DNA of 64,000 nucleotides from an uncultured Verrucomicrobiae bacterium. Its GTDB lineage: Bacteria > Verrucomicrobiota > Verrucomicrobiia > Chthoniobacterales > JAFAMB01. A program made the translations under genes and the position numbers. Of the stretch, positions 5,477 through 46,640 are shown one piece after another. Numbering within the stretch: the first letter of the stretch is position 1; every line of letters begins with the position of its first letter. The stretch covers positions 1,158,286 through 1,222,285 of the forward strand of contig CAVXLD010000001.1 of assembly GCA_963762565.1 (NCBI GenBank). Direction: 5' to 3'. A model generated the notes under the pieces. It had not been told where the DNA came from and ran no database searches. It saw only the letters and a list, made by a program, of their open reading frames with translations.

Positions 5477-5512
5477 AGGCGAAAAGGGGTGAACCCCCTC
5501 GCCTTAGGCTCG

Positions 5513-6791: not shown

Positions 6792-6793
6792 CA

Positions 6794-6920: not shown

Positions 6921-6924
6921 GCTC

Positions 6925-7152
6925 AATCCGTTCGGCGTTCGGCGTTTGGCGTTTGGCGTTGGTCGGCGGTCGGCGGTCGGCGGTCGTTGCTTAGGACCGT
7001 CAGTTAGGGATAGGTGGACTGGGGCTTTTAATCGTGCTCGTGCTCGGGATTTGGAAGGCGAGGCGTGGGCGTATGGGCGTATGGGCGTATGGGCGATGCG
7101 GCGAATTGCTCAGCGTTTCGCCAATTTGCTATCTGCTATTTGCTATTTGTAG
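6925..7152. repeat. Short tandem repeat arrays (TTCGGCG/TTTGGCG/GTCGGCG 7-mers; GCGTATGG 8-mers; CTATTTG 7-mers)
   Basis: Direct reading of 6930-6988, 7063-7095 and 7121-7152. Confidence 0.8.
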
Positions 7153-7229
7153 TCGCGAACGAGCCTCGGGCGAGTTCGTGCTACCGGCCTCACTTGCGCC
7201 TTCAAGAGAACCCGTTTAGGAAGGGAGCC

Positions 7230-8219: not shown

Positions 8220-8239
8220 TTAGCAGCCGATCCTCAGCG

Positions 8240-9142
8240 ATGGATTCTCGACCACCAATTCTATTGGCCGTTTTCGGAGCCCTGCTTCTGACTCAGATAG
8301 CGGCCTCTGCATCTGATCTGGCTTTTCTGGGTCCAAAAGGAAGTTATAGCGATGAAGCGGCAACTATATGGGCGTCTCGTGACCATATCACTGGCACTCT
8401 CCCTTTAAGCACGATCAGCTCGATCGCAGAATCTGCCCGGGACGGACGGGTAGAATTTGGTTTGCTGCCATTCGAGAATAGTATCGGCGGATTCGTCGGG
8501 GAAACGCAGAAGCTCCTGCTGGCGGCGGACCTCGGATGGCGCATCATCGGAGACATTACTATTCCGATCAGTAACAATCTTTTGGTAAAGCCCGGGGCGA
8601 AGGCATCGGATCTGAAGAAAGTAATATCGCATCCGGAGGCTCTTAAAGAATGCGCGAAATGGCTAAAGACGAACTTCCCTGAACTGGCTCAAGAGGAAGT
8701 CAGCTCCACCGCGGCGGCTGCAGAAGCAGTTTCCAAAGGGGATGGGACTATCGCAGCGATCGCCTCGCCGGCGGCTGCGAGTGTTTATCAGCTGCAGATA
8801 TTGTTCTCAAATATTGAGGACGATCGATCTAATGCCACGAACTTCGTGGTAATCGAAGGCGCCGGAGGCAATTTCTCAGAGCAAAATCCGACTCGCCTGG
8901 TTGTCCGAATCGAGGCAGCAAGCGGGACGGACATTTTTGCCCGGTTGCTAGACGCTCTGAATCGTCTTTCATTTAGTTTGACCAGCGCAGCCAGCGTAGC
9001 CACGGGCAGTCTAGGTTCACATCGATTCGCTCTCATATTGGACTCAAAAAAGGGAACAGATCTCGGCCAAATTCAAGATCTGCTTCGGCCTACCGGTGCT
9101 GTACTAGTCGGAGCGTACCGTCCCTCCGGCCTCGGACAGTAA
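8240..9142 (+). CDS. Prephenate dehydratase-like (PDT + ACT) protein with N-terminal signal/anchor
   Basis: FLGPKGSYSDEAA, LPFENSIGGFV and ISHPEALKECAKWL match PDT motifs. N-terminus is MDSRPPILLAVFGALLLTQIAASA. Confidence 0.65.
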   Translation: MDSRPPILLAVFGALLLTQIAASASDLAFLGPKGSYSDEAATIWASRDHITGTLPLSTISSIAESARDGRVEFGLLPFENSIGGFVGETQKLLLAADLGWRIIGDITIPISNNLLVKPGAKASDLKKVISHPEALKECAKWLKTNFPELAQEEVSSTAAAAEAVSKGDGTIAAIASPAAASVYQLQILFSNIEDDRSNATNFVVIEGAGGNFSEQNPTRLVVRIEAASGTDIFARLLDALNRLSFSLTSAASVATGSLGSHRFALILDSKKGTDLGQIQDLLRPTGAVLVGAYRPSGLGQ

Positions 9143-11195: not shown

Positions 11196-12717
11196 CTACT
11201 GTGACGCCGCATCGGCGGCGGTACGGAAACCGATTTCAGACGACCGGTCCAGGGTGGGCGCCATGAGCAGATACTTGTTGTGATGATTCAGTTGGTACGC
11301 AGTCGGCGTCGAAGGAAAGTAGAAGTTGATAGGAAAGTTTGACTGCGGTTGGTACGCTGAACCGCCCCGAACTACGGCGGCGATCGTGTGTTCATCCGTA
11401 AACGTGTTTGTCCATTGCCACACGTTACCGACCATATCGAGGACACCGAAAGGACTGGCGCCGCTCGGATGCGCGGTGACATCATCCGGAGGAGTCGTGT
11501 CGCGGCCGGTATTTACCGTGGGAACGTTCGTTGCCGAGAAGGTACTACCCCAAGGATACAATCGGCCGTCAGTCCCTTGAGCTGCATACTGCCATTCCCA
11601 TTCGTTTGGCAGGCGGCGTCCAGCCCATCGGACGTACGCTGCCGCGTCTTGCCAGGATACCCAAGTCACAGGTTTGTTGTCCCATCCCGCCTGGTAATGA
11701 GGATGAGCTGGGTTTGACCAGTCCCAATCGAGCAGGAAGTTATGAGTGTCCGCCGGACGATAGTTGGTCGCGTCCATGAAACCTTGATACTGCAGGTTCG
11801 TCACCTCGGTCTTATCCAGGTAGAACGTATTGATCGTCATTTGATGACTGTGAGTGTAACTGGGTTGCGATTCCCACGGATATTGAACATCGGCGCCAGG
11901 TTCACCGTCTCCTTCGATCTCCGTGCCTTCCACGGTGAATTCGTAGGTACCTCCTGAAATGGTGACCATTCCGTTAGGTGGTTCCGAATACGGCTTGGTT
12001 GTCTCGGTTGGATTAATGGCCTGGGTCAGTACGGTGTTAGCGGCGGAATAAGAGCTGAGCGGTTTAGCAGTCAATTGGCGCATCGTGGCCAGGAATTCCT
12101 TCAGCTTAGCTGGCAGATCGGCGGGCTTGGCGCCAAGGATTGCTCCGTAACCGCTGTCTTCAATAGAGAAAGCCAGGACGGCCGTCCCATTGCTAACAAC
12201 CGGTTTCAGCTCAACCCCATGCCAGAGATCGTAGTACACCTGCTTGGGGAAATCCGGGCATATCACGGATCAGTTGGTCCTGGTTTCGGCTATCGACGCC
12301 CATGTTGGGGTAGGTCGGCCAAAGCAAAACTGAATCGATCCCGCCGTACCGTTTATCCAAATCAGAGAGGTAGGTAGAGACAATATACTTACCGCTACTC
12401 ACATCGTAAAAGTACCGATCATGGGTCATCTCTTGGGGCTGAATCGGGTTGTGTTGGGTCCAGTTTAGCGGGGCGAATTGATAGATAGAATCATCGTAGT
12501 TAATGCTGGCCCGTTGCTGAGCCCGCCAGCTTTGCATAGCGGCTAACCAGGCGGCGGTATCACCAGGAGTATCAGGGCCGTTAATTTGAATATAATCAGG
12601 AAACACCAGCGTATAACCGGCGGCATCGGCGTGTCCGGGGAGGGAAACGCCGATCAAGGCGAGAGCCAAACAGGGAAGAATATTGAATTTCATATTCAGG
12701 AGGAAACGGGGGAACAT
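11196..12717 (-). CDS. Secreted protein with C-terminal formylglycine-generating-enzyme (FGE/SUMF1) domain; one frameshift in this assembly
   Basis: C-terminal motifs VTNLQYQGFMDATNYRP, VSWQDAAAYVRWAGRRLPNEWEWQYAA, MVGNVWQWT, RGGSAY. N-terminal signal MKFNILPCLALALIGVSLPGHA. The two frames join at the G-run 12246-12249 (DMPGFP|KQVYYDLWHG). Confidence 0.7.
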
Positions 12718-21029: not shown

Positions 21030-21103
21030 AAAATGACAGATGACAAATACACGGTTTCCGGGAGGGCCGGCGCCCGCTAATCTGTCATCTAGTCATTTGT
21101 CAT
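21030..21103. repeat. Word-hairpin (AAAATGACAGATGACAAATAC / TAATCTGTCATCTAGTCATTTGTCAT)
   Basis: Direct reading. Confidence 0.7.
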
Positions 21104-22336: not shown

Positions 22337-22485
22337 ACTTCCATAGAAGAGTAGCCTTTATTTTTGGCGATCGAGGTTACGGCTTGGTTCCGCGTTCGGA
22401 ATAATGTTTGTTTAAGTAGATCCGCAGAATTGCATTGCAACGTATGCAGAATTGGATCGATGAAGAATCGTCGTACATTCGACTC

Positions 22486-22949
22486 ATGACCACAGCCGAT
22501 ATCAAGACGCCACGTCCGTATCCCGGGATCAGGCAGGCCAAGATATCGGTGGCAAAGACGGAAACCCCACGAGAAAGCCTTCTGCCGATATCGCTTCTAT
22601 CCGCAAAGGGATTCCGCCAAAGGATTTCGTACTGCTAGCCAGGCATATCGGTTTACCGCAGGCAGAACTAGCCAGGAAATTGGGGCTCTCCCCGAGAACG
22701 ATAGCAGTGCGTATTGCCGGGGGCCAAAAGAAACTCAATCCTGAAGAAAGCGAAAAGGTCCTCCGGATCCAGCACATCTTTGAACAGGCCATTCGCGTTT
22801 TTGGCTCGTTAAAGGAGGCGCGAGAATGGCTGTTAAGTCCGGCAATTGGACTCGAAGGTCAAGGACCCATTGATCTGCTCGATACTGAGCCGGGCGGTGC
22901 TCAAGTCCGTGATTACCTTGGCGCGATCGAATACGGAAACTACTGGTGA
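22486..22949 (+). CDS. Xre/DUF2384-type antitoxin (ParS/MbcA-like); one frameshift in this assembly
   Basis: C-terminal part LARKLGLSPRTIAVR...EESEKVLRIQHIFEQAIRVFGS...AREWLLSPAIGLEGQGPIDLLDTEPG. That frame is open back to 22464 without a start. The ATG at 22486 is in the +1 frame. One extra C in the run 22565-22568 would fuse the two frames. Confidence 0.7.
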
Positions 22950-23416
22950 AGCTCTACCGGTTCGGTTCCGGGTCCGCGCGGCCTGCAGCCGAAGAGTTTA
23001 ACGGACAAGGTGGCGTTCTAGCTGCTGGCAGGTGGCACATTAAAGGTACACCGGTCGTTTATACGTCTACCTCAGAGCCCCTCGCACTTTTGGAAAAGCT
23101 GGTGCACCGACGATCAGCTACGGTCGTCTATCCGCTTTATATCGCCGATGTGCCCGATCATTTAATTGAAGAGCTTCCCGCCACTAGTCTGCCGGCAGAT
23201 TGGAGATCCATTTTCCCAAGTCGTTCCACTCAACGATTGGGTAACAATTGGCTTATAGGTAGATCCGGAGTGGGACTTCTAGTGCCGAGTATTCTCCTCA
23301 CTGGCGCCGCTCCGGAGGTTAAAAACTGTCTAGTGAACCCTGAACATCCGGAATTCAAAAAAGTCGCGCTGAGCGGACCAATACTGCTAGCGTTGGACAG
23401 CAGGTTCAATCAGTAG
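22946..23416 (+). CDS. RES domain toxin (NAD+ phosphorylase/ART-like, ParT/MbcT family)
   Basis: GRWHIKGTPVVYTSTSEPLALLEKLVH. The GTG start overlaps the antitoxin stop by 4 nt. Confidence 0.8.
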   Translation: MKLYRFGSGSARPAAEEFNGQGGVLAAGRWHIKGTPVVYTSTSEPLALLEKLVHRRSATVVYPLYIADVPDHLIEELPATSLPADWRSIFPSRSTQRLGNNWLIGRSGVGLLVPSILLTGAAPEVKNCLVNPEHPEFKKVALSGPILLALDSRFNQ

Positions 23417-27750: not shown

Positions 27751-29565
27751 TTAACTCTTGCGGGTGAACCCGTCGGCGCTCCACTCTTCGCTCCCGACGC
27801 CATGATGGACAAAGAATAGGCCGGTTGGATCGTATTTGTTTTTGATGGCGCGTAGACGCGAATAATTCGGGCCCCAGAACGATTCCTGCCACGAATTCTC
27901 GAAGTAATTGGTCTCTGAAACGTAAGAGGCTGGTTGGGGAACGATTTTTCTGAGCTCGTTCATGGCCTGGGCGATTTTGATCGCGTTTTGACGAGCGGCC
28001 GACACATCGGGTTCATGGCCGGCGATACCGGGATAAACCGGGTCTCCGCCACCTGCGATAATAACAAGAGCAAATGCATTTAGTACTGCTGGATTCGTGG
28101 CGGTATCGCGGGCGGCGGCAATTTCTTCTGGTGGTGCACCGGCTAACCCTTTGTTGAAGTGCAGTCCGACTCGCCAGTGGCGGGTCGCGGAAAAAAGAGC
28201 ATCGACCAGCCGCTCTGTGCTGTCCTTCGCTAGAAGAGTGTCCGGTAGCCAAATGGATTCATAGCCGTGCCAATACATTCCTACTTGGTTGTTGTCACCT
28301 GCCCACCAATAATGTTTATCGGATACACCTTCCCTGGAATCTGCTAACACCACTTCTGGTGCATTCTTTTTCCAAAAATCGAGATCCCAGTGGTGTCGGG
28401 CAGGGATGGCCGGAATAATTGGGCCCAACCGTATACTATAATCCGCCGGCGATTGGTTGATCCGATCGAAGAACGGTTTCCAGATACTCTCTGCTTCGGA
28501 TTTAGTGAGACCTTGGAACAGGAGCGTGATGGAGAGTTGATTGTTGCCGCCTAAGGACACGGTCTCACCCCAGTGGGGGTTAAACAACTGATCTCGATAG
28601 AATTCAATAAACCAGCCGATCAATTCCCGGAAAGCGGTATCCGAGTGTGCCTCGATCGTGGCGATCACTGTGCCGAACAATTCGGGAAGATCGCGGGTTC
28701 TTAAGGTTAGTTTTGTTAGTACGCCAAAACTGCCGCCGCCACCGCCTTTGATTGCCCAGAATAAATCGGAGTTAGTGCAGGCGTTAGCAACACGGACGGC
28801 GCCGTCTGCGGTCACAATTTCGGCCTCCAAAAGACCGGCCGCTGCCGTGCCGAATCGTTTTGAGTAGCTGCCAAATCCGCCCCCGTGAACCAGGCCGGCG
28901 ACACCGACGGTAGTACAACCGCCACCTTGGACATAGCGGCCGGCCTCGACAGTAACGGCGCGATAAACATCTATCCACATCGCACCGGATTCGACCGTGA
29001 CCGCGGCTTGCGGTGATTGGTGTTGGGCACATCCCTGGCCAACAAATGCGTCGTGTAAAACGATCTTGTTCATCGCCCGGGTCCAAATCAGGAGCGAGTC
29101 GGGCGCGTTTGATCCGCCGAGGTAACTGTGGCCGCCACCTTTCACGACCAACCGGAGATGGTTGGCCTGAGCAAAATTAACTCCGGCAACGACGTCATCG
29201 GTGGTCTGCGCAGCAATCGCATAAGCACTTGGACTGGAGATCCAGGCGTCGACCCAGCCCGTGCTTTGGGTAGCACCCGGTTGATCACCGACATAGAACG
29301 GGTTTTGCAGGTCTTTAATTATTTTGTCGCGAGCCGCAGCGGTCGTGTTTCCCGCAAGAACCGGTTCAACCTTAATCAGCCGGCCGTTTACCGTTTGATT
29401 TAGTTTTTCCCAACTCGCAGCATCGGGCCAATTTTTGTCGGAAGTGCGTACTCGCGAGGCAGGCGGGGTCGGTGAAGCGCCGCTGGCCGGTACCGAGAAA
29501 TAGCGCCAGAGTACGGACACAATCGGAAGTGTCGCCAAGCGTCTAAGGAAGCTTTTTCGGGTCAT
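27751..29565 (-). CDS. Secreted FAD-linked oxidase with berberine-bridge-enzyme (BBE) C-terminal domain
   Basis: VVKGGGHSYLGGS FAD_binding_4 motif. C-terminal YDPTGLFFVHHGVGSE. N-terminal signal-like RKSFLRRLATLPIV. Confidence 0.75.
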   Translation of the reverse strand: MTRKSFLRRLATLPIVSVLWRYFSVPASGASPTPPASRVRTSDKNWPDAASWEKLNQTVNGRLIKVEPVLAGNTTAAARDKIIKDLQNPFYVGDQPGATQSTGWVDAWISSPSAYAIAAQTTDDVVAGVNFAQANHLRLVVKGGGHSYLGGSNAPDSLLIWTRAMNKIVLHDAFVGQGCAQHQSPQAAVTVESGAMWIDVYRAVTVEAGRYVQGGGCTTVGVAGLVHGGGFGSYSKRFGTAAAGLLEAEIVTADGAVRVANACTNSDLFWAIKGGGGGSFGVLTKLTLRTRDLPELFGTVIATIEAHSDTAFRELIGWFIEFYRDQLFNPHWGETVSLGGNNQLSITLLFQGLTKSEAESIWKPFFDRINQSPADYSIRLGPIIPAIPARHHWDLDFWKKNAPEVVLADSREGVSDKHYWWAGDNNQVGMYWHGYESIWLPDTLLAKDSTERLVDALFSATRHWRVGLHFNKGLAGAPPEEIAAARDTATNPAVLNAFALVIIAGGGDPVYPGIAGHEPDVSAARQNAIKIAQAMNELRKIVPQPASYVSETNYFENSWQESFWGPNYSRLRAIKNKYDPTGLFFVHHGVGSEEWSADGFTRKS

Positions 29566-29603
29566 ACGTCGGAAATTCTCGAGTTAGCTAACTAGGGCGG
29601 AGC

Positions 29604-29646
29604 GAATGACAGATGACAAATTACAAATGACAGATGACAGATGCGG
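29604..29646. repeat. Heptamer array GACAGAT/GACAAAT/TACAAAT x5 (half element)
   Basis: Direct reading. Confidence 0.75.
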
Positions 29647-29652
29647 GGCCAG

Positions 29653-30429
29653 TCATCGGATCAGACCAGCTTGGAGACTCGCGAGCACGTCCTGATTGGT
29701 GCGCTCGAATTGCAGGGGAGTGACCGAGACCCGACCGTGTCCAATGGCGAAAGTCTCCGATCCAGGCGTGTCCCCTCGGGCTGAGCGTCGAAGGTGAAGC
29801 CAATGATATTCGAGGCTGCGGGGATCAATACCGGAGACGACGTCGACGTCCTCCATCAAGCCGGTTCCTTGAATGGTCAATTCGATCGGCCCCGCCTTAT
29901 CGGCAGGGACATCCGGAAAATTGATATTCAAAATTGAGCCTTGGCTCCAACCGCCTTTCGCGAACTGCCTGATCACCTTGGGAGCAAGCGCGCGAGCCGT
30001 GTCCCAACGCACCGCATTGCGATCGCTGAAGGCTTGGCTGAGAGCCATCGACGGGATCCCGAGTAACATACCGGTCATGGCCGCACCCACCGTTCCGGAA
30101 AAGACGGTTTCGATCCCGAGATTCGCGCCGCGGTTAATGCCCGACAGAATCAGGTCTGGTCTTCCCGACACCATCAGATGACGGACTGCCATGACCACAC
30201 AGTCGCCCGGCGTTCCGGAGACTGAGAATCGACGCTCCTCCTTCTGCGAGACCCGCAAAGGACTGTGCAGGCTCAAAGAATGCGACGTCCCGCTTTGGTC
30301 GTAGTTCGGGGCAACGATCCAAACCTCTTCAGCCAGTTCCTCTGCCACCTCAGTCAAAATCCGAAGGCCAGGAGCATCGAATCCGTCGTCGTTCGTGAGT
30401 AGTACTCTTGAGATGAGATGAGATGTCAT
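29653..30429 (-). CDS. surE: 5'/3'-nucleotidase SurE
   Basis: VLLTNDDGFDAPGLRIL N-terminus and GINRGANLG are characteristic SurE motifs. Confidence 0.85.
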   Translation of the reverse strand: MTSHLISRVLLTNDDGFDAPGLRILTEVAEELAEEVWIVAPNYDQSGTSHSLSLHSPLRVSQKEERRFSVSGTPGDCVVMAVRHLMVSGRPDLILSGINRGANLGIETVFSGTVGAAMTGMLLGIPSMALSQAFSDRNAVRWDTARALAPKVIRQFAKGGWSQGSILNINFPDVPADKAGPIELTIQGTGLMEDVDVVSGIDPRSLEYHWLHLRRSARGDTPGSETFAIGHGRVSVTPLQFERTNQDVLASLQAGLIR

Positions 30430-30485
30430 GCAAAAGAATTTAAAGTCTCACGCAAAGACGAAAAGGCGCAAAGGTTAAAACGGAG

Positions 30486-31961
30486 TCACTTCACCAATTT
30501 CTGATTCCGATACAACGCCCGCCATTCGATCACCTCGGTAAGCAGTGTCTTTTCTACCCGCGCAACTACGCGCAGGACGCTGGTCCAACTCTTGGTTTGT
30601 TCCAGTTGTTTCCGATAATCGAGGATAAGTCGACGCATTTCGAGGAAACGCCGCCGGCGGCGTCCGTAATCATTTACGACGATCATGGCGCCGGTAACTG
30701 CCGCCAGTTGGTAAGCCAAGACCACTGCCAAACCTAGCCACGACATCCAACCGTTTGAAGGCAGTAAATGGAAGACTTGAGCCGTCATGACGAAGAAAAG
30801 GTTCCCGGCAATCGCCAAAACGACAGACCAGCGAATGATAACCTGAGCCCATGACATGACTCGATCGGCCCGGCGCGTCTGCCGGGAAAAATAGCTGCTC
30901 TGCTGGACGATCCGCTCCTCATGGTAGGATTCTTTAAACGAGGCAAAATCCGTTTTCTGATTCTTGAACCCGGCCAACATCTTGAGATGATTCAGAGCCT
31001 CCAGCATTCCGTGCAGCTCGGGAATCACCGCTTTATCAATCACATCGTAGCGGACCGGAGCATCCCACAGAGCAACGAATGAGCGCGAAACTTCCGCGGC
31101 GGCCCGAACCCTGGCCCAGCTTTCCTGTGTTTCTTTAGCTTTCAGAAACTTCGGGGCCAGCGCGGCGATTAAGCCAAGAAGGGCGCTGGTTCCAAATAAA
31201 AGGCTGGCCTGTTGCCGAAAAATGTAGGCTGCAACCGTGAGCACAGCGGCAGTGCCAGCACACAAGATGGGTGTCGCAGCAATCTTGCGAAACTGTGGAG
31301 CCACTCGATTTGCATTCTCATCGAGTTTTTGGAACCAAGCGATTGCCTGGTCCCGATAGGTACCTCCCGGCTTAACTTTTCGGTCGGGTAAGTTGTTGAG
31401 GAAAGTTAGCTCGGGATCATGCCAAGATCGGTCGCTTTCGTTCCAACGCGTTATTTCACCGGTTTCACTGTGAATCCAAATAACCGGTGTACCGAGATTT
31501 TTACAGCATTCCGCCATTTCCCCGGTGCCGCCGATTCCTTGGGCCGGGAGTCCATTCCATAACACAATCAATAGGCCGCTCTGCAAAATCGTTTCCAACC
31601 CACACTCATAGTAACAATGTGGGCGGCTGAGTCCCCCACCTACGACCTCGAAAGAGACCGCTCGCTCGAGCGCGTTTTCAGCGCGTTTCCAAGTCGCGGC
31701 TTCGAAATCTTCGCTGAACTGAGCCGGCGGCATCGGCAAAAGGACGCGCAACGGTATACCGAGCTCAAAACATGCTTCAGCAAAGAGTAGGTCGCCACCC
31801 GCTGCCAGGGACGAGAGACCGGAAACTCCGCCCGGCAGCTTCGAATTCCATTCACTTAGCACTTTCAAAATCATGTCCCGACACCCCGATTCGTCGGCCA
31901 GTTTCATATGTCCCGAAAAACCGATTTGCAGAGCGGGGGTTAATTTAACTTGGGACTTCAT
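30486..31961 (-). CDS. SLOG (LOG/YpsA-like Rossmannoid) domain fused to a SLATT-type transmembrane effector region (4 TM)
   Basis: N-domain SSLAAGGDLLFAEACFELGIPLRVLLP and GIGGTGEMAE resemble LOG-family GGGxG / PGGxGTxxE. The C-terminal half has two helix pairs: IAATPILCAGTAAVLTVAAYIF / LLFGTSALLGLIAALAP and WAQVIIRWSVVLAIAGNLFFVM / WMSWLGLAVVLAYQLAAVTGAMIVV. Confidence 0.6.
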   Translation of the reverse strand: MKSQVKLTPALQIGFSGHMKLADESGCRDMILKVLSEWNSKLPGGVSGLSSLAAGGDLLFAEACFELGIPLRVLLPMPPAQFSEDFEAATWKRAENALERAVSFEVVGGGLSRPHCYYECGLETILQSGLLIVLWNGLPAQGIGGTGEMAECCKNLGTPVIWIHSETGEITRWNESDRSWHDPELTFLNNLPDRKVKPGGTYRDQAIAWFQKLDENANRVAPQFRKIAATPILCAGTAAVLTVAAYIFRQQASLLFGTSALLGLIAALAPKFLKAKETQESWARVRAAAEVSRSFVALWDAPVRYDVIDKAVIPELHGMLEALNHLKMLAGFKNQKTDFASFKESYHEERIVQQSSYFSRQTRRADRVMSWAQVIIRWSVVLAIAGNLFFVMTAQVFHLLPSNGWMSWLGLAVVLAYQLAAVTGAMIVVNDYGRRRRRFLEMRRLILDYRKQLEQTKSWTSVLRVVARVEKTLLTEVIEWRALYRNQKLVK

Positions 31962-32152
31962 GGGGAGGACTAAGCGGAATCGTCAGCAGACGGGCCTAGT
32001 GTAGGACGCAGCTCAGCGATCTTTCGATGAAAAAGCGCCAAAACACATCCAGCCAGATTGCCTGCAGCGCCGAATCCGTGAGCGCTAGGAGTCGCCCTTC
32101 CGCCGGCACGCCTCCTGGCTCCTGGGTTCTGGCTCCTCTTCGTCAACTCCCA

Positions 32153-32920
32153 TCAGCCTTTTTTTGCGCTCCGCTTTTGATCGTGTTCAGAGATCCATTT
32201 CAATCCTTCCAGCCAGTGTTCATGGCTGAGGTGGGTAAACTCCGGGTAACTGGCTCTCTCCCAGCGCGACGCCATACCGGTAGCCACCTCTTCGAAAGTT
32301 ACCAGGCACTTTCGAGGCCCCATGGGTTTAATGAGCCAGTTGTGGTAGGAATCAACCAGTGGACCATGAATGGTCCAAGCTCGCCCGTAACTGCGCCAAC
32401 CGAGACGGTTCGGAGGATCGCATTCAATAACCAGGCCGTCGACTTTGTCAGGGGGGACTTGACCCAAGATTGGTAGCAGTTGAGGCACGTCGGAACTCAA
32501 CCAGGAAAACTTCGTATTCTTTTGCAATACCCGTGATCCACCCCAAATCTTGACCTTCCCCGCGTAAGGGCACCACTTAGGCCATAGCTCCGCGTGAACC
32601 AGGTGATCCCATACCGTTTCACAAGAAGCGTTTATCTCGATCTGGTTATGCGCAAAGACTTCTGCAGATCGATTAAACATGGCGGTGGGCCAATGCATCT
32701 CGGGTGACCGCTGGATCCAATCCCTGTTTATGGCATCACCGACAGGAGTGGGGGTCGGGGTGGCCTTCCCCGTCACTGTGATAGCCGGCAACGGGGTATC
32801 TCCTTGGGCGGCCGTCGCCACGATTAAGAGCAGCCCGCAAACCGCGAGCGGTAAGACGTAGTGATCACTAACAGTCAATTTGCGCGGATACACGCACCGG
32901 GGGTTTACTCGCCTATCCAT
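32153..32920 (-). CDS. SRPBCC (START/cyclase-dehydrase fold) protein with N-terminal anchor
   Basis: ELWPKWCPYAGKVKIWGG-type motif. TM/signal LPLAVCGLLLIVATAAQG. Confidence 0.5.
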   Translation of the reverse strand: MDRRVNPRCVYPRKLTVSDHYVLPLAVCGLLLIVATAAQGDTPLPAITVTGKATPTPTPVGDAINRDWIQRSPEMHWPTAMFNRSAEVFAHNQIEINASCETVWDHLVHAELWPKWCPYAGKVKIWGGSRVLQKNTKFSWLSSDVPQLLPILGQVPPDKVDGLVIECDPPNRLGWRSYGRAWTIHGPLVDSYHNWLIKPMGPRKCLVTFEEVATGMASRWERASYPEFTHLSHEHWLEGLKWISEHDQKRSAKKG

Positions 32921-33462
32921 AAGCCTGATTGCATTCACGTCCTGGGTGAGAGTAACGACCACAACGATACCGAAAACCGGGGTTCGGCCAAGAATTAGGA
33001 AATCGACCGGAAACTAAGACTTACGGCAAGACTCTATGAATCTGATTCGCTCTTGAGCAGTTCGCGGAAGGACCGCAGAATTTCAAGGTAGCTAAATCCA
33101 GGAATAAATCGGCCTCTGCCCGAGTCTTATTCTATGAGAGGACGAGATCGCGTTTTTGCTGTCGGTCTGTCACAAACCAAAGCTTGGATTCATAAAGAGA
33201 CGTTCCGCTATGCCCAGTCCCGAAACATCTAAGGAACAAAACGAGTCACTGCATGGTTCGCGCTGGGTAGTTCCCGGGAGCCGCCTGCTGCCCACTCCTG
33301 GAGCTGCCGGATTGCAAAGCGGCTCCCCTCCAGACGTTGGGCCGCGCTCAGGCTCCGGTGACGATCAACCGTTTCGGGGCGATGATGAGGCGGCTAGACC
33401 GAGCCTGATTGATAACTGGATCGATGCTTGATCCCCAGGGATCAGCGGAGCAAGGCCAGGGC

Positions 33463-33699
33463 AGCCATGAAATGGCGTAACAGAGCAGCCCAGGGCTTCA
33501 GCCCTGGGTATATTTGTCGTAACATCCGCCCTGAAAGGGCGGCCGAAATGCGCGACTTTGGACCCACATCCGTGGCGATCCACGCTCGTCCGATACTGCG
33601 CTACGTCCAAGGGATTCGGTGGCCCTTTCAGGGCCAATTCTATGGGACGCTTTCCCAGGCCTGAAGGCCTGGGCTGTTCTATTACGCCATTTCATGGCT
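33463..33699. mobile_element. 237-bp MITE-like element with 46-bp terminal inverted repeats
   Basis: Left end AGCCATGAAATGGCGTAACAGAGCAGCCCAGGGCTTCAGCCCTGGG. Right end CCCAGGCCTGAAGGCCTGGGCTGTTCTATTACGCCATTTCATGGCT (about 41/46 complementary). Internal hairpins CCGCCCTGAAAGGGCGG and GGCCCTTTCAGGGCC. Confidence 0.7.
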
Positions 33700-39990: not shown

Positions 39991-40026
39991 GCTACTCAAT
40001 TTTACCCCTTTTATCCCTGATCCGCT

Positions 40027-40522
40027 ATGTCCGCTCCTTCTCCCCGCTGGCATCTAGCTCAAATTAATATCGGCCGAATCCGCCCCCATGACCGATTCGC
40101 TTATGTCGGGGTTTGTGGCCGAGCTTGACCCCGTCAATGCTTTGGCCGATACCAGCCCCGGTTTCGTCTGGCGACTTCAGACCGACGCCGGAGATGCTAC
40201 CGGCATTCGCCCGTACGATGACGAAACCATCCTCATCAATATGTCGGTGTGGGAAAGCGTCGAAGCTCTCAAAGCCTTTGTTTATCGGACACATCACGCC
40301 GATGTCATGCGCCAACGAGAGAAATGGTTCGAACACCTCGACACCTATTTCATCGCCCTCTGGTGGATACCGGCGGGGACTATTCCGACGGTTTTAGAAG
40401 CCAAGGTCCGGCTCGATCATCTCCGCGAAAACGGCGAATCTCCCTACGCTTTCTCTTTCAAGAGAGTCTATCCGCCGTCGTCACCTGTCACGGTTTTAGA
40501 CAATGCGGCTGATTCTGTATAA
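40027..40522 (+). CDS. DUF3291 protein (copy 1); N-terminal 20 codons in another frame
   Basis: [27 protein letters not shown]...[15 protein letters not shown]. The family N-terminus [12 protein letters not shown] is encoded from ATG 40027 but is out of frame at the C-run 40083-40087. Confidence 0.7.
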
Positions 40523-40563
40523 ACCGTTGGCGCACTTCGCCTTTCTCTCTACAGATAAGCATT

Positions 40564-41505
40564 ATGCCATTGCCAACCGATGAGAAACTGCTGGCTCTAA
40601 GCCAGGATCTGCTCAAGCAATTCGATACCATCTTCGGTTTACATCCAGGTTTTCGCGCGGCGCACGCTCGCGGGACCATGCTCACCGGTACTTTTACGCC
40701 TGCTCCTGACGCTGCATCCCTTACCAGAGCTCCCCATATCACCCGCGAATCGACTCCGGTTACCGCACGATTCTCTAGCTCAACCGGCATTCCGCTGTTG
40801 CCGGACAACGATCCGAATGCCAACCCGCGGGGGTTAGCCATTCGGTTTCATCTCGGCGAGCATGTGCACACGGACATTGTGAGCCATTCGATCGATGCCT
40901 TCCCCGCGAGGAACGCGCAGGAATTTCTAGAATTCTTGCGGGCGGTTGCAGCCAGCGGACCCGACGTTCCGTCACCGAAACCGGTTGAGATATTCTTGGG
41001 TTCACATCCGGCAGCGCTCGCTTTTGTACAAGCTCCGAAGCCGAGTCCGGCCAGTTTCGCCAAAGAAAACTTCTACGGAGTGACGGCGATGCGCTTCATC
41101 AACAAAGAGGGCGCCAGCCGTTACGGTCGATACCGGATTCTACCTGACGCCGGCGTCGAACATCTCGATCCGGAAATTACAAAGGACAAAGGGCCAGATT
41201 TCCTTTTCGATGAGTTAAGCGAACGGATCGCCGCGGCGCCGATTAGTTTTCAAATCTTTGCTCAGCTCGCGAACGAAGGTGACGAGGTCAACGACGTCGC
41301 CGTGCATTGGCCCGAAGATCGACCTTTAGCGCGGCTCGGCCAGATCGTTTTAACTGCACCGGCCGAAAATGACGCCCAAGAGCAGAAGAAAATTATCTTC
41401 GATCCAATCCCGCGAGTCGACGGGATCGAGCCATCGGATGATCCACTGTTGGAGGTACGTGCCGCGGTTTATCTGCTGAGCGGACGGCGACGACGCCAAG
41501 CGTAA
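40564..41505 (+). CDS. Small catalase-related (catalase family) haem peroxidase (copy 1)
   Basis: FRAAHARGTMLTGTFTP...TPVTARFSSSTGIP...DPNANPRGLAIRF core motifs in a protein of about 313 aa. Confidence 0.75.
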   Translation: MPLPTDEKLLALSQDLLKQFDTIFGLHPGFRAAHARGTMLTGTFTPAPDAASLTRAPHITRESTPVTARFSSSTGIPLLPDNDPNANPRGLAIRFHLGEHVHTDIVSHSIDAFPARNAQEFLEFLRAVAASGPDVPSPKPVEIFLGSHPAALAFVQAPKPSPASFAKENFYGVTAMRFINKEGASRYGRYRILPDAGVEHLDPEITKDKGPDFLFDELSERIAAAPISFQIFAQLANEGDEVNDVAVHWPEDRPLARLGQIVLTAPAENDAQEQKKIIFDPIPRVDGIEPSDDPLLEVRAAVYLLSGRRRRQA

Positions 41506-41513
41506 AAAGGATT

Positions 41514-41755
41514 CACCACAAAGACACGAAGAACACAAAGACAATCCCAACCGCAGATGAACGCAGATTTGGAAGGGCCGTGCCACGCGCTCAGCGAAAG
41601 ATGGCGCCACGATGCACACGAAGCATTCGACGCAGCTTTGGCCGGTCTTTAGGTGGTTTGACCAATTCGTGTGCACAACGTGGCTTTTTTATCTGCGTTA
41701 ATCCGTGTTCATCTGCGGTTGGCCTTTCGTTCGTGTTCTTTGCTCCTTTGTGGTG
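41514..41755. repeat. 242-bp nested word-hairpin (copy 1)
   Basis: Outer arms CACCACAAAGACACGAAGAACACAAAG..AACCGCAGATGAACGCAGATTT / TTATCTGCGTTAATCCGTGTTCATCTGCGGTT..CGTTCGTGTTCTTTGCTCCTTTGTGGTG. Inner perfect 10-bp stem TGCACACGAA/TTCGTGTGCA. Confidence 0.8.
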
Positions 41756-41768
41756 AGTGCACTGCGGA

Positions 41769-42500
41769 TTACTCCCGGCGGGCCTCGAAGTAGGTGTTAC
41801 AGATTTCGAGGATGATGGTATTGGGTCCTTCGACCAAAACGGTTTCACCCGGCACCGCCTCACTGCCGTTCAGGGATAGTTCGGCGATCTTCACATTCGG
41901 GTGATTAATGGTGATCTGCTTAACTGCAGATGCCGCGATCCCGAGCTGGTTAAAGTCCACGTGCGATCTGCTACCGGAATCGCCCTGAGCAAACTCTTGT
42001 GCGCCGAGCATGTTCGTTGAGCTCCCCGAGCTTGGTACATTGGTCGTTTTCCAACGGAAACTGTCGGCGCGATATTCTATCTCGGTGCCTACCAGGGTTT
42101 GCGCCTGTTTGCTGTCCAGGCACGTGACCGTATCGGCAGGCAATACTTTATGGACGATCCATTTCCCAAGCAGCTCCGGAGGGATTTTACCGACGGGCGT
42201 GGTATTCGATCCTGCTTGGGCAACTAACTGTTCAAGAAAATCGGCTCGCGCTTTTGTGGCCTGAGCTAAACAGGCAGCATCTTTGCCACATTTTTGATCT
42301 CGTTGCTTGAGCCAGTCCAATTCCTGCCTGCGCAACTCCGCCAGTTTAGCTGGGTTACCACGGAGTTGTGCCACTCGCTGTTGGTAGGCCTGATTAAGGC
42401 GGGCGTCTTCCTGACTAAGCCCGGCTTCTTGCGCGGCCGAGATAGTGGCGCAGGCGCCGGCTGCCAATAGGATGATGCCCTTATGTAACCTGCATTTCAT
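41769..42500 (-). CDS. Secreted protein with N-terminal DUF1311 (LprI-like) domain (copy 1)
   Basis: Signal MKCRLHKGIILLAAGACATISA, then LNQAYQQRVAQL...ELRRQELDWLKQRDQKCG. ATG at 42500. Confidence 0.65.
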   Translation of the reverse strand: MKCRLHKGIILLAAGACATISAAQEAGLSQEDARLNQAYQQRVAQLRGNPAKLAELRRQELDWLKQRDQKCGKDAACLAQATKARADFLEQLVAQAGSNTTPVGKIPPELLGKWIVHKVLPADTVTCLDSKQAQTLVGTEIEYRADSFRWKTTNVPSSGSSTNMLGAQEFAQGDSGSRSHVDFNQLGIAASAVKQITINHPNVKIAELSLNGSEAVPGETVLVEGPNTIILEICNTYFEARRE

Positions 42501-42503
42501 TTT

Positions 42504-42551
42504 CCACGGTTCCGACCGAGTCGGCCTCGCAAGCGAGGCAGCGCTCCACGG
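42504..42551. repeat. Solo copy of the GGCCTCGCAAGCGAGGC hairpin motif in the 57-bp spacer between two co-oriented genes
   Basis: CCACGGTTCCGACCGAGTCGGCCTCGCAAGCGAGGCAGCGCTCCACGG. Repeated at 45776-45823. Confidence 0.75.
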
Positions 42552-42556
42552 TTTTG

Positions 42557-43216
42557 CTAGCTGGGGAGAGCGAAACAAACGATCTCGTTTACCGCTCGAT
42601 GGTTTGACCAAAAGTTCGATCCGTCAAAAGCCAATGAACGGCATGGGAACGGCACCTTGGCTAAGTCCTCGATGCGGGATGAGCCGGAGGATTGTAAATT
42701 CAAACGGGCGATGCTCCAATCTTCGTTCCCCTGCTCCGTTCCACGCAGAACGTAAATCGCTCCCCCGAAATAGGTGTGCCCGCAAATCTCAGCGCCAATG
42801 TCGTACGTCTCCAGGATACTTCCGCTAGGATCGAGTTTCAGAATACGATGCTTATACCATTGGCTAAGATAGACGTGGCTGCCGTCGTAGCTCAGGTAGG
42901 ATCCGGTAAACTCCGGACAAGCAACCCGATCGGTTTCGGAGAATCCACTATCGGAAGAATAACGTCGCAGATACCGATCGTCCGCGGCTCCTTCTCCGAT
43001 ATTGAAACAGAGCGCTTCACCGGTTGAGACAGCCGCCGATGGTATTCCTGGCGCTTCGGTTTCTTTGAATACGCGCAGACTTTCCGGCTCAATCCCGTAA
43101 ATACGCCGTAAGTCACGCGAGCCCATCCATAAGGCATCGTTGTGCCAAGCTAACGCTTGAGGTGTCACGGCAGGGGAAGCGACGCGCCTGCGTTCTTTAA
43201 TTGCTGGTAGCGACAT
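42557..43216 (-). CDS. Hypothetical beta-propeller-like protein, glutamine-cyclotransferase-like pattern (copy 1)
   Basis: LAWHNDALWMGS, SYLSYDGSHVYLSQWYKHRILKLDPSG, GAIYVLRG. Weak motif-level call. Confidence 0.4.
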   Translation of the reverse strand: MSLPAIKERRRVASPAVTPQALAWHNDALWMGSRDLRRIYGIEPESLRVFKETEAPGIPSAAVSTGEALCFNIGEGAADDRYLRRYSSDSGFSETDRVACPEFTGSYLSYDGSHVYLSQWYKHRILKLDPSGSILETYDIGAEICGHTYFGGAIYVLRGTEQGNEDWSIARLNLQSSGSSRIEDLAKVPFPCRSLAFDGSNFWSNHRAVNEIVCFALPS

Positions 43217-43296
43217 GGGGGGTTCGGGTTGCGGGTTAGGAGTCACAGGTTTCGACTTACGCTACTCAATTTTACCCCTTTTATCCCTGATCCGCT

Positions 43297-43783
43297 ATGT
43301 CCGCTCCTTCTCCCCGCTGGCATCTAGCTCAAATTAATATCGGCCGAATCCGCCCCCATGACCGATTCGCTTATGTCGGGCTTTGTGGCCGAGCTTGATC
43401 CCGTCAATGCTTTGGCCGATACCAGCCCCGGTTTCGTTTGGCGACTTCAGACCGACGCCGGAGATGCTACCGGCATTCGCCCGTACGATGACGAAACCAT
43501 CCTCATCAATATGTCGGTGTGGGAAAGCGTCGAAGCTCTCAAAGCCTTTGTTTATCGGACACATCACGCCGATGTCATGCGCCAACGAGAGAAATGGTTC
43601 GAACACCTCGACACCTATTTCATCGCCCTCTGGTGGATACCGGCGGGGACTATTCCGACGGTTTTAGAAGCCAAGGTCCGGCTCGATCATCTCCGCGAAA
43701 ACGGCGAATCTCCCTACGCTTTCTCTTTCAAGAGAGTCTATCCGCCTTCGTCACCTATCACGGTTTTAGACAATCGCGGCTGA
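43297..43783 (+). CDS. DUF3291 protein (copy 2); same N-terminal frame break, different C-terminus
   Basis: Same as copy 1, except a 1-bp insertion (CAATCGCGG vs CAATGCGG) gives ...VLDNRG* instead of ...VLDNAADSV*. Confidence 0.7.
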
Positions 43784-43834
43784 TTCTGTATAAACCGTTG
43801 GCGCACTTCGCCTTTCTCTCTACAGATAAGCATT

Positions 43835-44749
43835 ATGCCATTGCCAACCGATGAGAAACTGCTGGCTCTAAGCCAGGATCTGCTCAAGCAATTCGATACC
43901 ATCTTCGGTTTACATCCAGGTTTTCGCGCGGCGCACGCTCGCGGGACCATGCTCACCGGTACTTTTACGCCTGCTCCTGACGCTGCATCCCTGACCAGAG
44001 CTCCCCATATCACCCGCGAATCGACTCCGGTTACCGCACGATTCTCTAGCTCAACCGGCATTCCGCTGTTGCCGGACAACGATCCGAATGCCAACCCGCG
44101 GGGGTTAGCCATCCGGTTTCATCTCGGCGAGCATGTGCACACGGACATTGTGAGCCATTCGATCGATGCCTTCCCTGCGAGGAACGCGCAGGAATTTCTA
44201 GAATTTTTGCGGGCGGTTGCAGCCAGCGGACCCGACGTTCCGTCACCGAAACCGGTTGAGATATTCTTGGGTTCACATCCGGCAGCGCTCGCTTTTGTAC
44301 AAGCTCCGAAGCCGAGTCCGGCCAGTTTCGCCAAAGAAAACTTCTACGGAGTGACGGCGATGCGCTTCATCAACAAAGAGGGCGCCAGCCGTTACGGTCG
44401 ATACCGGATTCTACCTGACGCCGGCGTCGAACATCTCGATCCGGAGATTACAAAGGACAAAGGGCCAGATTTCCTTTTCGATGAGTTAAGCGAACGGATC
44501 GCCGCGGGGCCGATTAGTTTTCAAATCTTTGCTCAGCTCGCGAACGAAGGTGACGAGGTCAACGACGTCACCGTGCATTGGCCCGAAGATCGACCTTTAG
44601 CGCGGCTCGGCCAGATCGTTTTAACTGCACCGGCCGAAAATGACGCCCAAGAGCAGAAGAAAATTATCTTCGATCCAATCCCGCGAGTCGACGGGATCGA
44701 GCCATCGGATGATCCATGTTGGAGGTACGTGCCGCGGTTTATCTGCTGA
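43835..44749 (+). CDS. Catalase-related peroxidase (copy 2), C-terminal frameshift
   Basis: A 1-bp deletion at 44716/44717 (GATCCATGTT vs GATCCACTGTT) changes the last 22 aa to 13 unrelated aa. Also A->G and A->T substitutions. Confidence 0.7.
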   Translation: MPLPTDEKLLALSQDLLKQFDTIFGLHPGFRAAHARGTMLTGTFTPAPDAASLTRAPHITRESTPVTARFSSSTGIPLLPDNDPNANPRGLAIRFHLGEHVHTDIVSHSIDAFPARNAQEFLEFLRAVAASGPDVPSPKPVEIFLGSHPAALAFVQAPKPSPASFAKENFYGVTAMRFINKEGASRYGRYRILPDAGVEHLDPEITKDKGPDFLFDELSERIAAGPISFQIFAQLANEGDEVNDVTVHWPEDRPLARLGQIVLTAPAENDAQEQKKIIFDPIPRVDGIEPSDDPCWRYVPRFIC

Positions 44750-44783
44750 GCGGACGGCGACGACGCCAAGCGTAAAAAGGATT

Positions 44784-45027
44784 CACCACAAAGACACGAA
44801 GAACACAAAGACAATCCCAACCGCAGATGAACGCAGATTTAGAAGGGACCGTGCCACGCGCTCAGCGAAAGATGGCGCCACGAATGCACACGAAGCATTC
44901 GACGCAGCTTTGGCCGGTCTTTAGGTGGTTTGACCAATTCGTGTGCACAACGTGGCTTTTTTATCTGCGTTAATCCGTGTTCATCTGCGGTTGGCCTTTC
45001 GTTCGTGTTCTTTGCGCCTTTGTGGTG
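44784..45027. repeat. Nested word-hairpin (copy 2)
   Basis: As 41514-41755, with 4 small differences. Confidence 0.8.
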
Positions 45028-45040
45028 AGTGCACTGCGGA

Positions 45041-45772
45041 TTACTCCCGGCGGGCCTCGAAGTAGGTGTTACAGATTTCGAGGATGATGGTATTGGGTCC
45101 TTCGACCAAAACGGTTTCACCCGGCACCGCCTCACTGCCGTTCAGGGATAGTTCGGCGATCTTCACATTCGGGTGATTAATGGTGATCTGCTTAACTGCA
45201 GATGCCGCGATCCCGAGCTGGTTAAAGTCCACGTGCGATCTGCTACCGGAATCGCCCTGAGCAAACTCTTGTGCGCCGAGCATGTTCGTTGAGCTCCCCG
45301 AGCTTGGTACATTGGTCGTTTTCCAACGGAAACTGTCGGCGCGATATTCTATCTCGGTGCCTACCAGGGTTTGCGCCTGTTTGCTGTCCAGGCACGTGAC
45401 CGTATCGGCAGGCAATACTTTATGGACGATCCATTTCCCAAGCAGCTCCGGAGGGATTTTACCGACGGGCGTGGTATTCGATCCTGCTTGGGCAACTAAC
45501 TGTTCAAGAAAATCGGCTCGCGCTTTTGTGGCCTGAGCTAAACAGGCAGCATCTTTGCCACATTTTTGATCTCGTTGCTTGAGCCAGTCCAATTCCTGCC
45601 TGCGCAACTCCGCCAGTTTAGCTGGGTTACCACGGAGTTGTGCCACTCGCTGTTGGTAGGCCTGATTAAGGCGGGCGTCTTCCTGACTAAGCCCGGCTTC
45701 TTGCGCGGCCGAGATAGTGGCGCAGGCGCCGGCTGCCAATAGGATGATGCCCTTATGTAACCTGCATTTCAT
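45041..45772 (-). CDS. Secreted DUF1311-domain protein (copy 2)
   Basis: 280-aa ORF identical to copy 1. Confidence 0.65.
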   Translation of the reverse strand: MKCRLHKGIILLAAGACATISAAQEAGLSQEDARLNQAYQQRVAQLRGNPAKLAELRRQELDWLKQRDQKCGKDAACLAQATKARADFLEQLVAQAGSNTTPVGKIPPELLGKWIVHKVLPADTVTCLDSKQAQTLVGTEIEYRADSFRWKTTNVPSSGSSTNMLGAQEFAQGDSGSRSHVDFNQLGIAASAVKQITINHPNVKIAELSLNGSEAVPGETVLVEGPNTIILEICNTYFEARRE

Positions 45773-45828
45773 TTTCCACGGTTCCGACCGAGTCGGCCTC
45801 GCAAGCGAGGCAGCGCTCCACGGTTTTG

Positions 45829-46488
45829 CTAGCTGGGGAGAGCGAAACAAACGATCTCGTTTACCGCTCGATGGTTTGACCAAAAGTTCGATCCGTCAAA
45901 AGCCAATGAACGGCATGGGAACGGCACCTTGGCTAAGTCCTCGATGCGGGATGAGCCGGAGGATTGTAAATTCAAACGGGCGATGCTCCAATCTTCGTTC
46001 CCCTGCTCCGTTCCACGCAGAACGTAAATCGCTCCCCCGAAATAGGTGTGCCCGCAAATCTCAGCGCCAATGTCGTACGTCTCCAGGATACTTCCGCTAG
46101 GATCGAGTTTCAGAATACGATGCTTATACCATTGGCTAAGATAGACGTGGCTGCCGTCGTAGCTCAGGTAGGATCCGGTAAACTCCGGACAAGCAACCCG
46201 ATCGGTTTCGGAGAATCCACTATCGGAAGAATAACGTCGCAGATACCGATCGTCCGCGGCTCCTTCTCCGATATTGAAACAGAGCGCTTCACCGGTTGAG
46301 ACAGCCGCCCATGGTATTCCTGGCGCTTCGGTTTCTTTGAATACGCGCAGACTTTCCGGCTCAATCCCGTAAATACGCCGTAAGTCACGCGAGCCCATCC
46401 ATAAGGCATCGTTGTGCCAAGCTAACGCTTGAGGTGTCACGGCAGGGGAAGCGACGCGCCTGCGTTCTTTAATTGCTGGTAGCGACAT
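45829..46488 (-). CDS. Beta-propeller-like hypothetical protein (copy 2)
   Basis: Identical to copy 1 except S->W (46310 vs 43038). Confidence 0.4.
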   Translation of the reverse strand: MSLPAIKERRRVASPAVTPQALAWHNDALWMGSRDLRRIYGIEPESLRVFKETEAPGIPWAAVSTGEALCFNIGEGAADDRYLRRYSSDSGFSETDRVACPEFTGSYLSYDGSHVYLSQWYKHRILKLDPSGSILETYDIGAEICGHTYFGGAIYVLRGTEQGNEDWSIARLNLQSSGSSRIEDLAKVPFPCRSLAFDGSNFWSNHRAVNEIVCFALPS

Positions 46489-46493
46489 GGGGG

Positions 46494-46640
46494 GTTCGGG
46501 TTGCGGGTTAGGAGTCACGGGTTTCGAGTTACGAGTTATGCGTTGTGGGTTGGAACTTGCAGGTCGGCGAGCGCACCGAATGTCTCGGCTTCGACAACGC
46601 CAACCCGTAACCCGCAACCCGTAACTCGCAACTCCTAACC
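46494..46640. repeat. Word-hairpin of GGGTTAC/GAGTTAC-type heptamers
   Basis: GGTTCGGGTTGCGGGTTAGGAGTCACGGGTTTCGAGTTACGAGTTATGCG.. versus CCAACCCGTAACCCGCAACCCGTAACTCGCAACTCCTAACC. Its left arm is the 3' edge of the duplicated unit. Confidence 0.75.

Follow-up and report, generated by a model that had tools for sequence, protein, structure and literature searches.

Does a gene for a predicted nucleotide-sensing membrane protein act together with the genes that lie beside it, and, if not, what does it answer to? We examined this question in a 64-kb stretch of DNA (the window) from an uncultured Verrucomicrobiae bacterium (contig CAVXLD010000001.1); the coordinates given below are window positions unless a locus label beginning with L is stated. 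A gene on the minus strand (30486–31961), described here by its open reading frame (ORF), homologues, AlphaFold2 (AF2) model and ratio of nonsynonymous to synonymous substitution rates (dN/dS), encodes a 491-aa protein that is predicted to join a SLOG domain to tandem SLATT modules. In the direction of the minus strand, the gene is followed by a 56-bp spacer (30430–30485), surE (258 aa, 29653–30429), an 87-bp spacer (29566–29652), and the gene of a 604-aa BBE-type oxidase linked to flavin adenine dinucleotide (FAD; 27751–29565). A sequence-only reading had placed these three genes on this strand with 56 bp before surE, as the ORFs confirm, and had proposed a functional coupling of the SLOG-SLATT protein to surE. 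Our results indicate instead that the gene came to lie beside surE and the oxidase through an accident of gene content in this lineage and that the three do not form a functional module. We hold with moderate confidence that the protein is a solo inner-membrane sensor-effector, in which the SLOG domain would gate the SLATT modules via a nucleotide messenger.

The AF2 model of the 491-aa protein was built with 37 homologues and had a predicted local distance difference test score (pLDDT) of 85 and a predicted template modelling score of 0.79. The SLOG domain, a Rossmannoid domain (residues ~8–175; 31437–31940, minus strand), was delimited by this model, Foldseek matches, invariant alignment columns, and a transitive Pfam link. 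Residues 11–173 were modelled with a pLDDT of ~90 as an alternation of strands and helices running from the strand at 11–17 to that at 170–173. The top Foldseek match in the PDB was Bacillus subtilis YpsA (2nx2; E 1.8e-4, target TM-score 0.68). The further PDB matches, all with a probability of 1.0, comprised ShosA, DprA, the SLOG domain of BcThsA bound to 3' cyclic ADP-ribose (3'cADPR), and the LOG-like structures 1rcu, 1weh and 2iz7; the ThsA SLOG domain, with 7uxs, 6lhx and 8bto among the matches, had a target TM-score of 0.43 versus 0.68 for YpsA. Against viral models, DprA-like proteins and "YspA cpYpsA-related SLOG"/DUF2493 proteins matched best, with target TM-scores of up to 0.87. The fold check on the N-terminal domain thus returned the SLOG superfamily, with YpsA first.

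In regards to the sequence, neither the query nor its 36 aligned homologues matched a Pfam SLOG model directly, and neither the single protein nor the family profile gave a significant match when searched against PDB sequences. A profile search with the N-terminal domain reached standalone proteins of ~157 aa at E-values of 1e-23 to 1e-32; one of these passes the gathering score of YAcAr (32.0 versus 28.2), and others match DprA and YpsA below threshold. The motifs on which the sequence-only reading had drawn are present: AAGGDLLFAEA at residues 53–63, IPLRVLLP at 69–76, and GIGGTGEMAE at 142–151. The family-invariant residues are G14, F15, G17 and H18; S51, A53, G55 and D57; F82, D85 and F86; W135; and G142, G144 and G145. 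T146 is nearly invariant, and an acidic residue, read from the alignment, stands at position 148 after the GGT motif in all aligned members. Both the Gly-rich loop after strand 1 and the GGxGT-like Gly/Thr motif near the C-terminal strands are therefore present, and SLOG-type domains contact nucleotides where these invariant residues sit (PMC9503650). Neither the query nor the 36 aligned homologues matched Lysine_decarbox (PF03641), the Pfam model of LOG. The motif of the 491-aa family is GxGGTx[DE], and its spacing differs from that of the LOG motif, PGGxGTxxE. Because of the Foldseek ranking and the transitive link to YAcAr, DprA and YpsA, the N-terminal domain is predicted to belong to the YpsA/DprA-like side of the SLOG superfamily and not to LOG proper.

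A linker with the motif DPEL-x-FLN-x-LPD (residues ~180–195; 31377–31424, minus strand), recognized from its conserved columns, leads from the SLOG domain to the first membrane module; D182 is invariant, and L188, N189, L191 and P192 are nearly so. The AF2 model gave long helices over residues 202–485, and hydropathy and charge placed four segments of transmembrane (TM) length there, forming two hairpins with short outer loops and Lys/Arg-rich cytoplasmic flanks. Module 1 (residues ~202–330; 30972–31358, minus strand), which is SLATT/DUF4231-like by Pfam, NCBIfam and hydropathy, runs from a long cytoplasmic helix through TM1 (226–249) and TM2 (251–273) to a conserved helix with R286, A289, E290, R293 and S294. 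Module 2 (residues ~339–485; 30507–30947, minus strand), which is SLATT-like by hhalign, by hydropathy and charge, and by its AF2 helices, runs from a helix through TM3 (372–400) and TM4 (404–431) to an Arg-rich stretch (D431, R434 and R435) and C-terminal helices. The two halves (196–335 and 336–491) aligned in register in hhalign (E 6e-5, probability 65%), and the protein therefore carries two tandem 2-TM modules, the product of an internal duplication. Among the 37 homologues, matches at E≤0.1 were found for DUF4231 in 31, for SLATT_3 in 19, and for SLATT_1 in 16, with best E-values of 4e-8 to 2e-6 across the models (4.3e-8 for DUF4231), and many homologues carry a precomputed PF14015, PF18181 or PF18184 annotation. 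From their sequences, the C-terminal ~290 residues are assigned to SLATT/DUF4231 at the family level. The architecture given in the sequence-only reading, a SLOG/LOG-superfamily domain followed by two 2-TM modules, is thus upheld by the Foldseek SLOG matches, the four hydrophobic segments, and the SLATT/DUF4231 matches of the homologues. We rejected a transporter or channel identity for the TM region, as the Foldseek matches to ABC transporters and TRPM had query TM-scores of 0.10–0.23 (at most 0.17 for the ABC transporters alone) with a root-mean-square deviation above 29 Å and are not meaningful.

The distant relatives (40–47% identity), which are mostly from Acidobacteriota and in some cases from Verrucomicrobiota, occur in two tight operon types. 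In type A (~45 acidobacterial and verrucomicrobial loci), the gene for a 362-aa patatin lies 5 bp after the SLOG-SLATT gene. This patatin resembles the phospholipase activated by cyclic GMP–AMP of the cyclic-oligonucleotide-based antiphage signalling system (CBASS), with an NCBIfam E-value of 2.8e-33, below the equivalog cut-off, and an E-value of 6e-45 for the PADLOC phospholipase effector. Upstream stand a ~500-aa lipobox protein and/or an nSTAND1 nucleoside triphosphatase (~1370–1480 aa) whose repeats are of the WD40 or the TPR kind; L023, the WD40 form that was scanned, has an N-terminal TIR domain. The ~500-aa protein showed an LSGC lipobox alone and matched nothing in Pfam, NCBIfam, PADLOC or the PDB. 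Its identity as a divergent TIR-DUF4185 protein was considered and rejected, as hhalign showed no relationship. The full four-gene operon occurs in L002, L004, L013, L020, L021, L065, L078 and others (at ~200–8600) and matches no single PADLOC system; with its TIR-STAND-WD40 protein, lipoprotein, SLOG-SLATT protein and CapV-like patatin, it may represent a Thoeris-like, two-effector system that has not been described before. In type B (~20 loci), the SLOG-SLATT gene is immediately preceded by the gene for a 648-aa TIR-DUF4185 protein, and there is no patatin (L001, L003, L006, L009 and others, at ~3980–5930).

Other partners were found outside these two types. In a verrucomicrobial relative with 66% identity, the gene for a 739-aa RyR-TPR-S-class III nucleotide cyclase (L082 5773–7992) ends 9 bp upstream of the SLOG-SLATT gene, which suggests that some family members answer to cyclic nucleotides and not to TIR products. 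On a Caballeronia plasmid, a DUF4231 protein is followed by TIR and WD40 genes. No CD-NTase was present among the conserved neighbour clusters of the relatives' loci, in which the patatin alone bears a likeness to a CBASS component. Conflict systems that use nucleotide second messengers are marked by the combination of a lipase with TIR or cyclase partners, and a messenger-gated SLOG-SLATT membrane effector is therefore the best supported interpretation of the family.

From the fold, the topology and these gene contexts, which our data show, we infer each step of a mechanism for the 491-aa protein that follows the sensor-effector logic of Thoeris and CBASS. The cytoplasmic SLOG domain would bind a second messenger derived from a nucleotide. 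As most relatives have TIR partners, a TIR product derived from ADP-ribose is the most probable messenger, and a cyclic nucleotide is possible where the partner is a cyclase. Binding would change the conformation or the oligomeric state of the SLATT helices, and this change would permeabilize or gate the membrane and thereby lead to cell arrest or death. For the window copy, the signal would come from another part of the genome or from outside the cell, unless the protein has taken on another use, and the gain and loss of genes in a variable part of the chromosome would have placed surE and the oxidase alongside it.

Several observations weigh against this mechanism. No tblastn match to the patatin, TIR-DUF4185, STAND, lipoprotein, cyclase or other neighbours of the relatives was obtained in the 64-kb window. 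The window protein itself matched DUF4231 (residues 225–290; E 1.3e-4, 22.8 bits versus a gathering score of 24.7), SLATT_1 (E 5e-4) and SLATT_3 (E 1.8e-3) below the respective cut-offs, and no PADLOC model matched it. Residue 19 (codon 31905–31907), which follows the GFxGH motif, is Arg in 32 of 32 more distant members and Met in the window protein and its two closest relatives; as this residue lies in the predicted ligand loop, ligand binding may have been altered or lost, or the solo lineage may have changed its specificity. Vertical, syntenic inheritance under strong constraint in the absence of a partner is unusual for an abortive-infection effector. Finally, our literature search found no ligand, oligomer, toxicity or phage phenotype for a SLOG-SLATT fusion. 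In regards to the criteria by which Thoeris and CBASS are recognized, the 64-kb window contains no adjacent TIR gene, and there was no adjacent CD-NTase among the neighbours examined, the whole window not having been scanned for CD-NTases.

The sequence-only reading had suggested that the SLOG-SLATT protein may be coupled to surE, the nucleotidase either producing or removing the SLOG ligand, and the oxidase might belong to the same functional unit; we regard this explanation as very improbable. It draws on the shared strand, the 56-bp spacer, in which we found no terminator-like or promoter-like site, the order of the genes, which four ~99% identical strains share, and the action of the SurE family on nucleotides. 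We surveyed the neighbours of 79 loci encoding relatives, with one genome per species and adjacency defined as within 6 kb; the counts rest on our own ORF calling and single-linkage clustering. In this survey, surE adjoined the SLOG-SLATT homologue in 1 of the 79 loci, that of an 85% identical verrucomicrobial metagenome-assembled genome, in which DoxX-like and GNAT genes separate the two over 2.3 kb. The oxidase adjoined it in none of the 79 and was near no relative outside the ~99% identical strains. In the 87% identical relative, surE was 7.4 kb away, with nine intervening genes (AraC, three short-chain dehydrogenases/reductases, DUF5069, TetR, alcohol dehydrogenase and small ORFs), and in the 86% identical relative a RES-Xre toxin-antitoxin pair was upstream and an unknown gene downstream. 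The relatives at 76%, 71%, 66%, 57% and 52% identity all have neighbours other than surE and the oxidase, the 76% relative having a convergent patatin beside its SLOG-SLATT gene and the 71% relative unrelated neighbours. The relatives have well-conserved partners of their own (TIR, patatin, STAND and cyclase), and the surE gene is an ordinary one. It matched Pfam SurE (E 5.5e-58) and scored above the cut-offs of the housekeeping equivalog model NF001490 (297.7 bits versus 233) and of TIGR00087 (189 versus 135), which places it outside the SLOG-SLATT system. A PADLOC scan of the four minus-strand genes at 27751–32962 returned as its sole match a weak one of surE to an oligonucleotide-cyclase model (E 0.014). 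Because the adjacency is not conserved beyond the ~99% identical strains, an outcome that the sequence-only reading had itself named as refuting, we attribute the contact with surE to chance.

Among the remaining explanations, decay is highly unlikely. The 491-aa gene could be a functionless remnant of a lost multi-gene defence system, given that the partner genes of distant relatives are absent from the 64-kb window and the invariant Arg is lost; however, dN/dS was 0.07–0.10 in both the SLOG and SLATT halves against three relatives (dS 0.7–1.4), all close relatives keep an uninterrupted frame of full length, and the other invariant residues are retained. The gene is under strong purifying selection and is not decaying; surE had a dN/dS of 0.08. 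A catalytic SLOG domain is unlikely, too; with N-glycosidase or another nucleotide-processing activity, it would be tethered to the membrane by the SLATT helices and would make or degrade a nucleotide-derived molecule. The invariant polar residues H18, D57 and D85, the constant acidic residue at 148, the catalytic activity of some SLOG clades (PMC9503650), and the LOG-like structures among the fold matches would suit such an enzyme, but the best fold matches are non-LOG proteins (YpsA, DprA, ShosA and the ThsA SLOG domain), there is no Pfam LOG match, and GGTx[DE] does not reproduce the LOG spacing. Moreover, in the relatives the TIR or cyclase supplies the signal and the patatin the effector, which fits a sensor role for SLOG.

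The strong selection also bears on whether the protein has been domesticated as a housekeeping membrane protein that gates permeability, or signals, on a nucleotide of the cell's own, for example a stress alarmone or a metabolite of nicotinamide adenine dinucleotide, an explanation that we consider rather doubtful. The syntenic position of the gene, which has fpg/SRPBCC on one side and surE on the other in relatives of 85% identity and above, the dN/dS of ~0.08, the lack of a partner in 64 kb, and the lineage-specific R19M change in the predicted ligand loop are consistent with domestication. On the other side, the flanks form a variable region with toxin-antitoxin pairs and an insertion sequence in sister genomes, which is typical of accessory or defence loci, the 76% and 66% relatives still pair with a patatin or a cyclase, and nothing points directly to an endogenous ligand. 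As relatives at ≤66% identity have partners, the solo state looks derived. We tentatively entertain, as one possibility, that the window protein is a stand-alone SLOG-SLATT effector uncoupled from its cognate system, and that it listens to a signal in trans (from a TIR protein or cyclase, neighbour cells or phage) or to an endogenous nucleotide. The absence of a partner in cis and the strong selection together would imply a signal in trans or another use. The solo copy could therefore receive a trans signal, could have been domesticated to sense an endogenous nucleotide, or could be an effector whose specificity has changed, and the sensor-effector mechanism set out above remains the one that we favour for the protein.

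The BBE-type oxidase was identified by Pfam FAD_binding_4 (E 7.8e-20) and BBE (E 1.7e-11) domains, and its N-terminus appears by eye to contain a twin-arginine signal-like segment. The sequence-only reading had speculated on a link between LOG and cytokinin oxidase. We found no support for a LOG-cytokinin pathway that includes the oxidase: the SLOG domain is not LOG-type and matches no LOG Pfam model, the oxidase gave no match to a cytokinin-binding C-terminal domain at E≤1 in Pfam, and the neighbours are not conserved (the oxidase adjoining in 0 of 79 loci). The oxidase ORF of the window is complete (604 aa). Among the ~99% identical strains, the corresponding ORF is called as shorter or split in two (L090 12397–13920; L091 7192–9005; L092 3265–4822), and these may be real pseudogenes or the result of assembly indel errors.

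The word repeats that the sequence-only reading had seen between the genes are real but small. The SLOG-SLATT/surE spacer holds an 8-mer repeated three times (30451–30474), and the surE-oxidase spacer holds a TGTCATC-like heptamer array of 5.4 copies (29606–29643), which is polymorphic in sister strains. Promoter and terminator scans of the spacers performed no better than on shuffled sequence, and Rfam identified no riboswitch or known RNA in them. The heptamer word recurs at 21033–21045 and 5529–5541, with 4 matches in the window versus 0.06 expected. A palindromic element of ~235 bp that resembles a miniature inverted-repeat transposable element is inserted exactly at the heptamer array in three of the four ~99% identical strains (L089 ~12330–12580, L091 ~6890–7140, and L092); the window and L090 represent the empty site, and the window does not carry the element elsewhere either.

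Upstream of the SLOG-SLATT gene lies an SRPBCC (Polyketide_cyc2) gene (32153–32962, minus strand). The four ~99% identical strains that keep the SLOG-SLATT/surE/oxidase order vary in their upstream SRPBCC/AHSA1 genes and in the surE-oxidase spacer, and the SRPBCC gene was rejected as a partner, its presence varying even among these strains. Two full-length Acido-Lenti-1 motifs (RF01687; 50 and 51 bits versus a gathering score of 37) stand in opposite orientation (33463–33508, minus strand; 33654–33699, plus strand) in the intergenic stretch that separates fpg from the SRPBCC gene, ~1.5 kb upstream of the SLOG-SLATT gene; the Rfam search gave no other match. A RES toxin (22946–23413) within 22406–23413 (plus strand) is 95.5% identical to a sister-strain copy; the alignment of the Xre-type antitoxin upstream of it to the sister-strain protein spans two or more frames, a sign of a probable frameshift or of an indel in the assembly. 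The window also contains a 3.27-kb tandem direct duplication (39991–43255 and 43261–46527; 99.4% identical) with paired ORFs of ~280 and ~230–260 aa. In regards to a mobile-element origin of the SLOG-SLATT gene, phage matches were none and just a partial match was found on two Caballeronia plasmids, and this origin was rejected.

The adjacency of surE and the oxidase in the window should not be taken as evidence of a nucleotide or cytokinin pathway. Should the sensor-pore model prove right, SLOG-SLATT proteins would be single-chain counterparts of the Thoeris and CBASS effectors, and the acidobacterial operons of TIR-STAND, lipoprotein and patatin would be good starting points for experiments. 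If the solo protein is indeed uncoupled, it would represent a messenger-gated membrane effector separated from its cognate system, and this conserved copy may act as an "orphan receiver" that picks up immune or stress nucleotides. The family is large, with 112 full-length homologues of the 491-aa protein and 755 cluster representatives at E≤1e-30; a Caballeronia relative carries the RefSeq label "DUF4231 domain-containing protein". In agreement with the sequence-only reading, which had called the SLOG plus SLATT architecture a computational prediction, our literature search found no biochemical or genetic study of any SLOG-SLATT fusion.

Among known systems, LOG and cytokinin oxidase (CKX) are comparable at the superfamily level only, SLOG being shared with LOG, and VAO/FAD_binding_4 being shared by CKX and the BBE-type oxidase; the window proteins differ from them in the missing Lysine_decarbox match, in the rank of LOG-like structures below YpsA and DprA, and in the BBE domain of an oxidase that is not a conserved neighbour. 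The closest structural relatives of the N-terminal domain are YpsA (2nx2), DprA and YspA/DUF2493 (YAcAr), which, unlike the 491-aa protein, are soluble, lack SLATT helices, and have roles in cell division or DNA uptake or of an unknown kind. ThsA of Thoeris type I (SIR2-SLOG) shares the SLOG fold, albeit as a weaker match than YpsA and DprA, and many relatives of the window protein adjoin TIR genes as ThsA adjoins ThsB; the effector part is a SIR2 NADase in ThsA and a SLATT membrane part here, where the window has no TIR gene. According to bioRxiv 10.64898/2025.12.03.692087, the ThsA SLOG domain binds the TIR product 3'cADPR, and ThsH, the SLATT effector of Thoeris type VII, is thought to be activated by cADPR made by a TIR protein. 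ThsH and the SLATT-type 2TM effectors of CBASS are similar to the window protein in that the SLATT effector is thought, in the same text, to oligomerize and breach the membrane on nucleotide binding; as described there, ThsH differs in that a SLATT domain alone is annotated and the ligand pockets are modelled between protomers, whereas a SLOG domain is fused in front here. None of the ThsH or CBASS effector models in PADLOC and NCBIfam matched above threshold.

The nearest comparison is with the SLOG-SLATT/DUF4231 proteins predicted in 2015 by Burroughs, Zhang, Schaffer, Iyer and Aravind; SLATT ("SMODS and SLOG-associating 2TM effector") owes its name to the SLOG-SLATT architecture. The prediction for SLATT was that of an effector that forms pores in response to nucleotides (Burroughs et al. 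2015, as cited in PMC7159879 and PMC9503650). The window protein is similar to these proteins in that SLOG is joined to SLATT 2-TM hairpins, with PF14015, PF18181 and PF18184 found in its homologues. It differs from them in its two tandem 2-TM modules, in a SLOG domain that matches no current Pfam SLOG model directly, and in a gene that stands alone, with no signal gene in the window. The architecture itself is a known, predicted type of bacterial conflict effector, and what is new here is the solo member.

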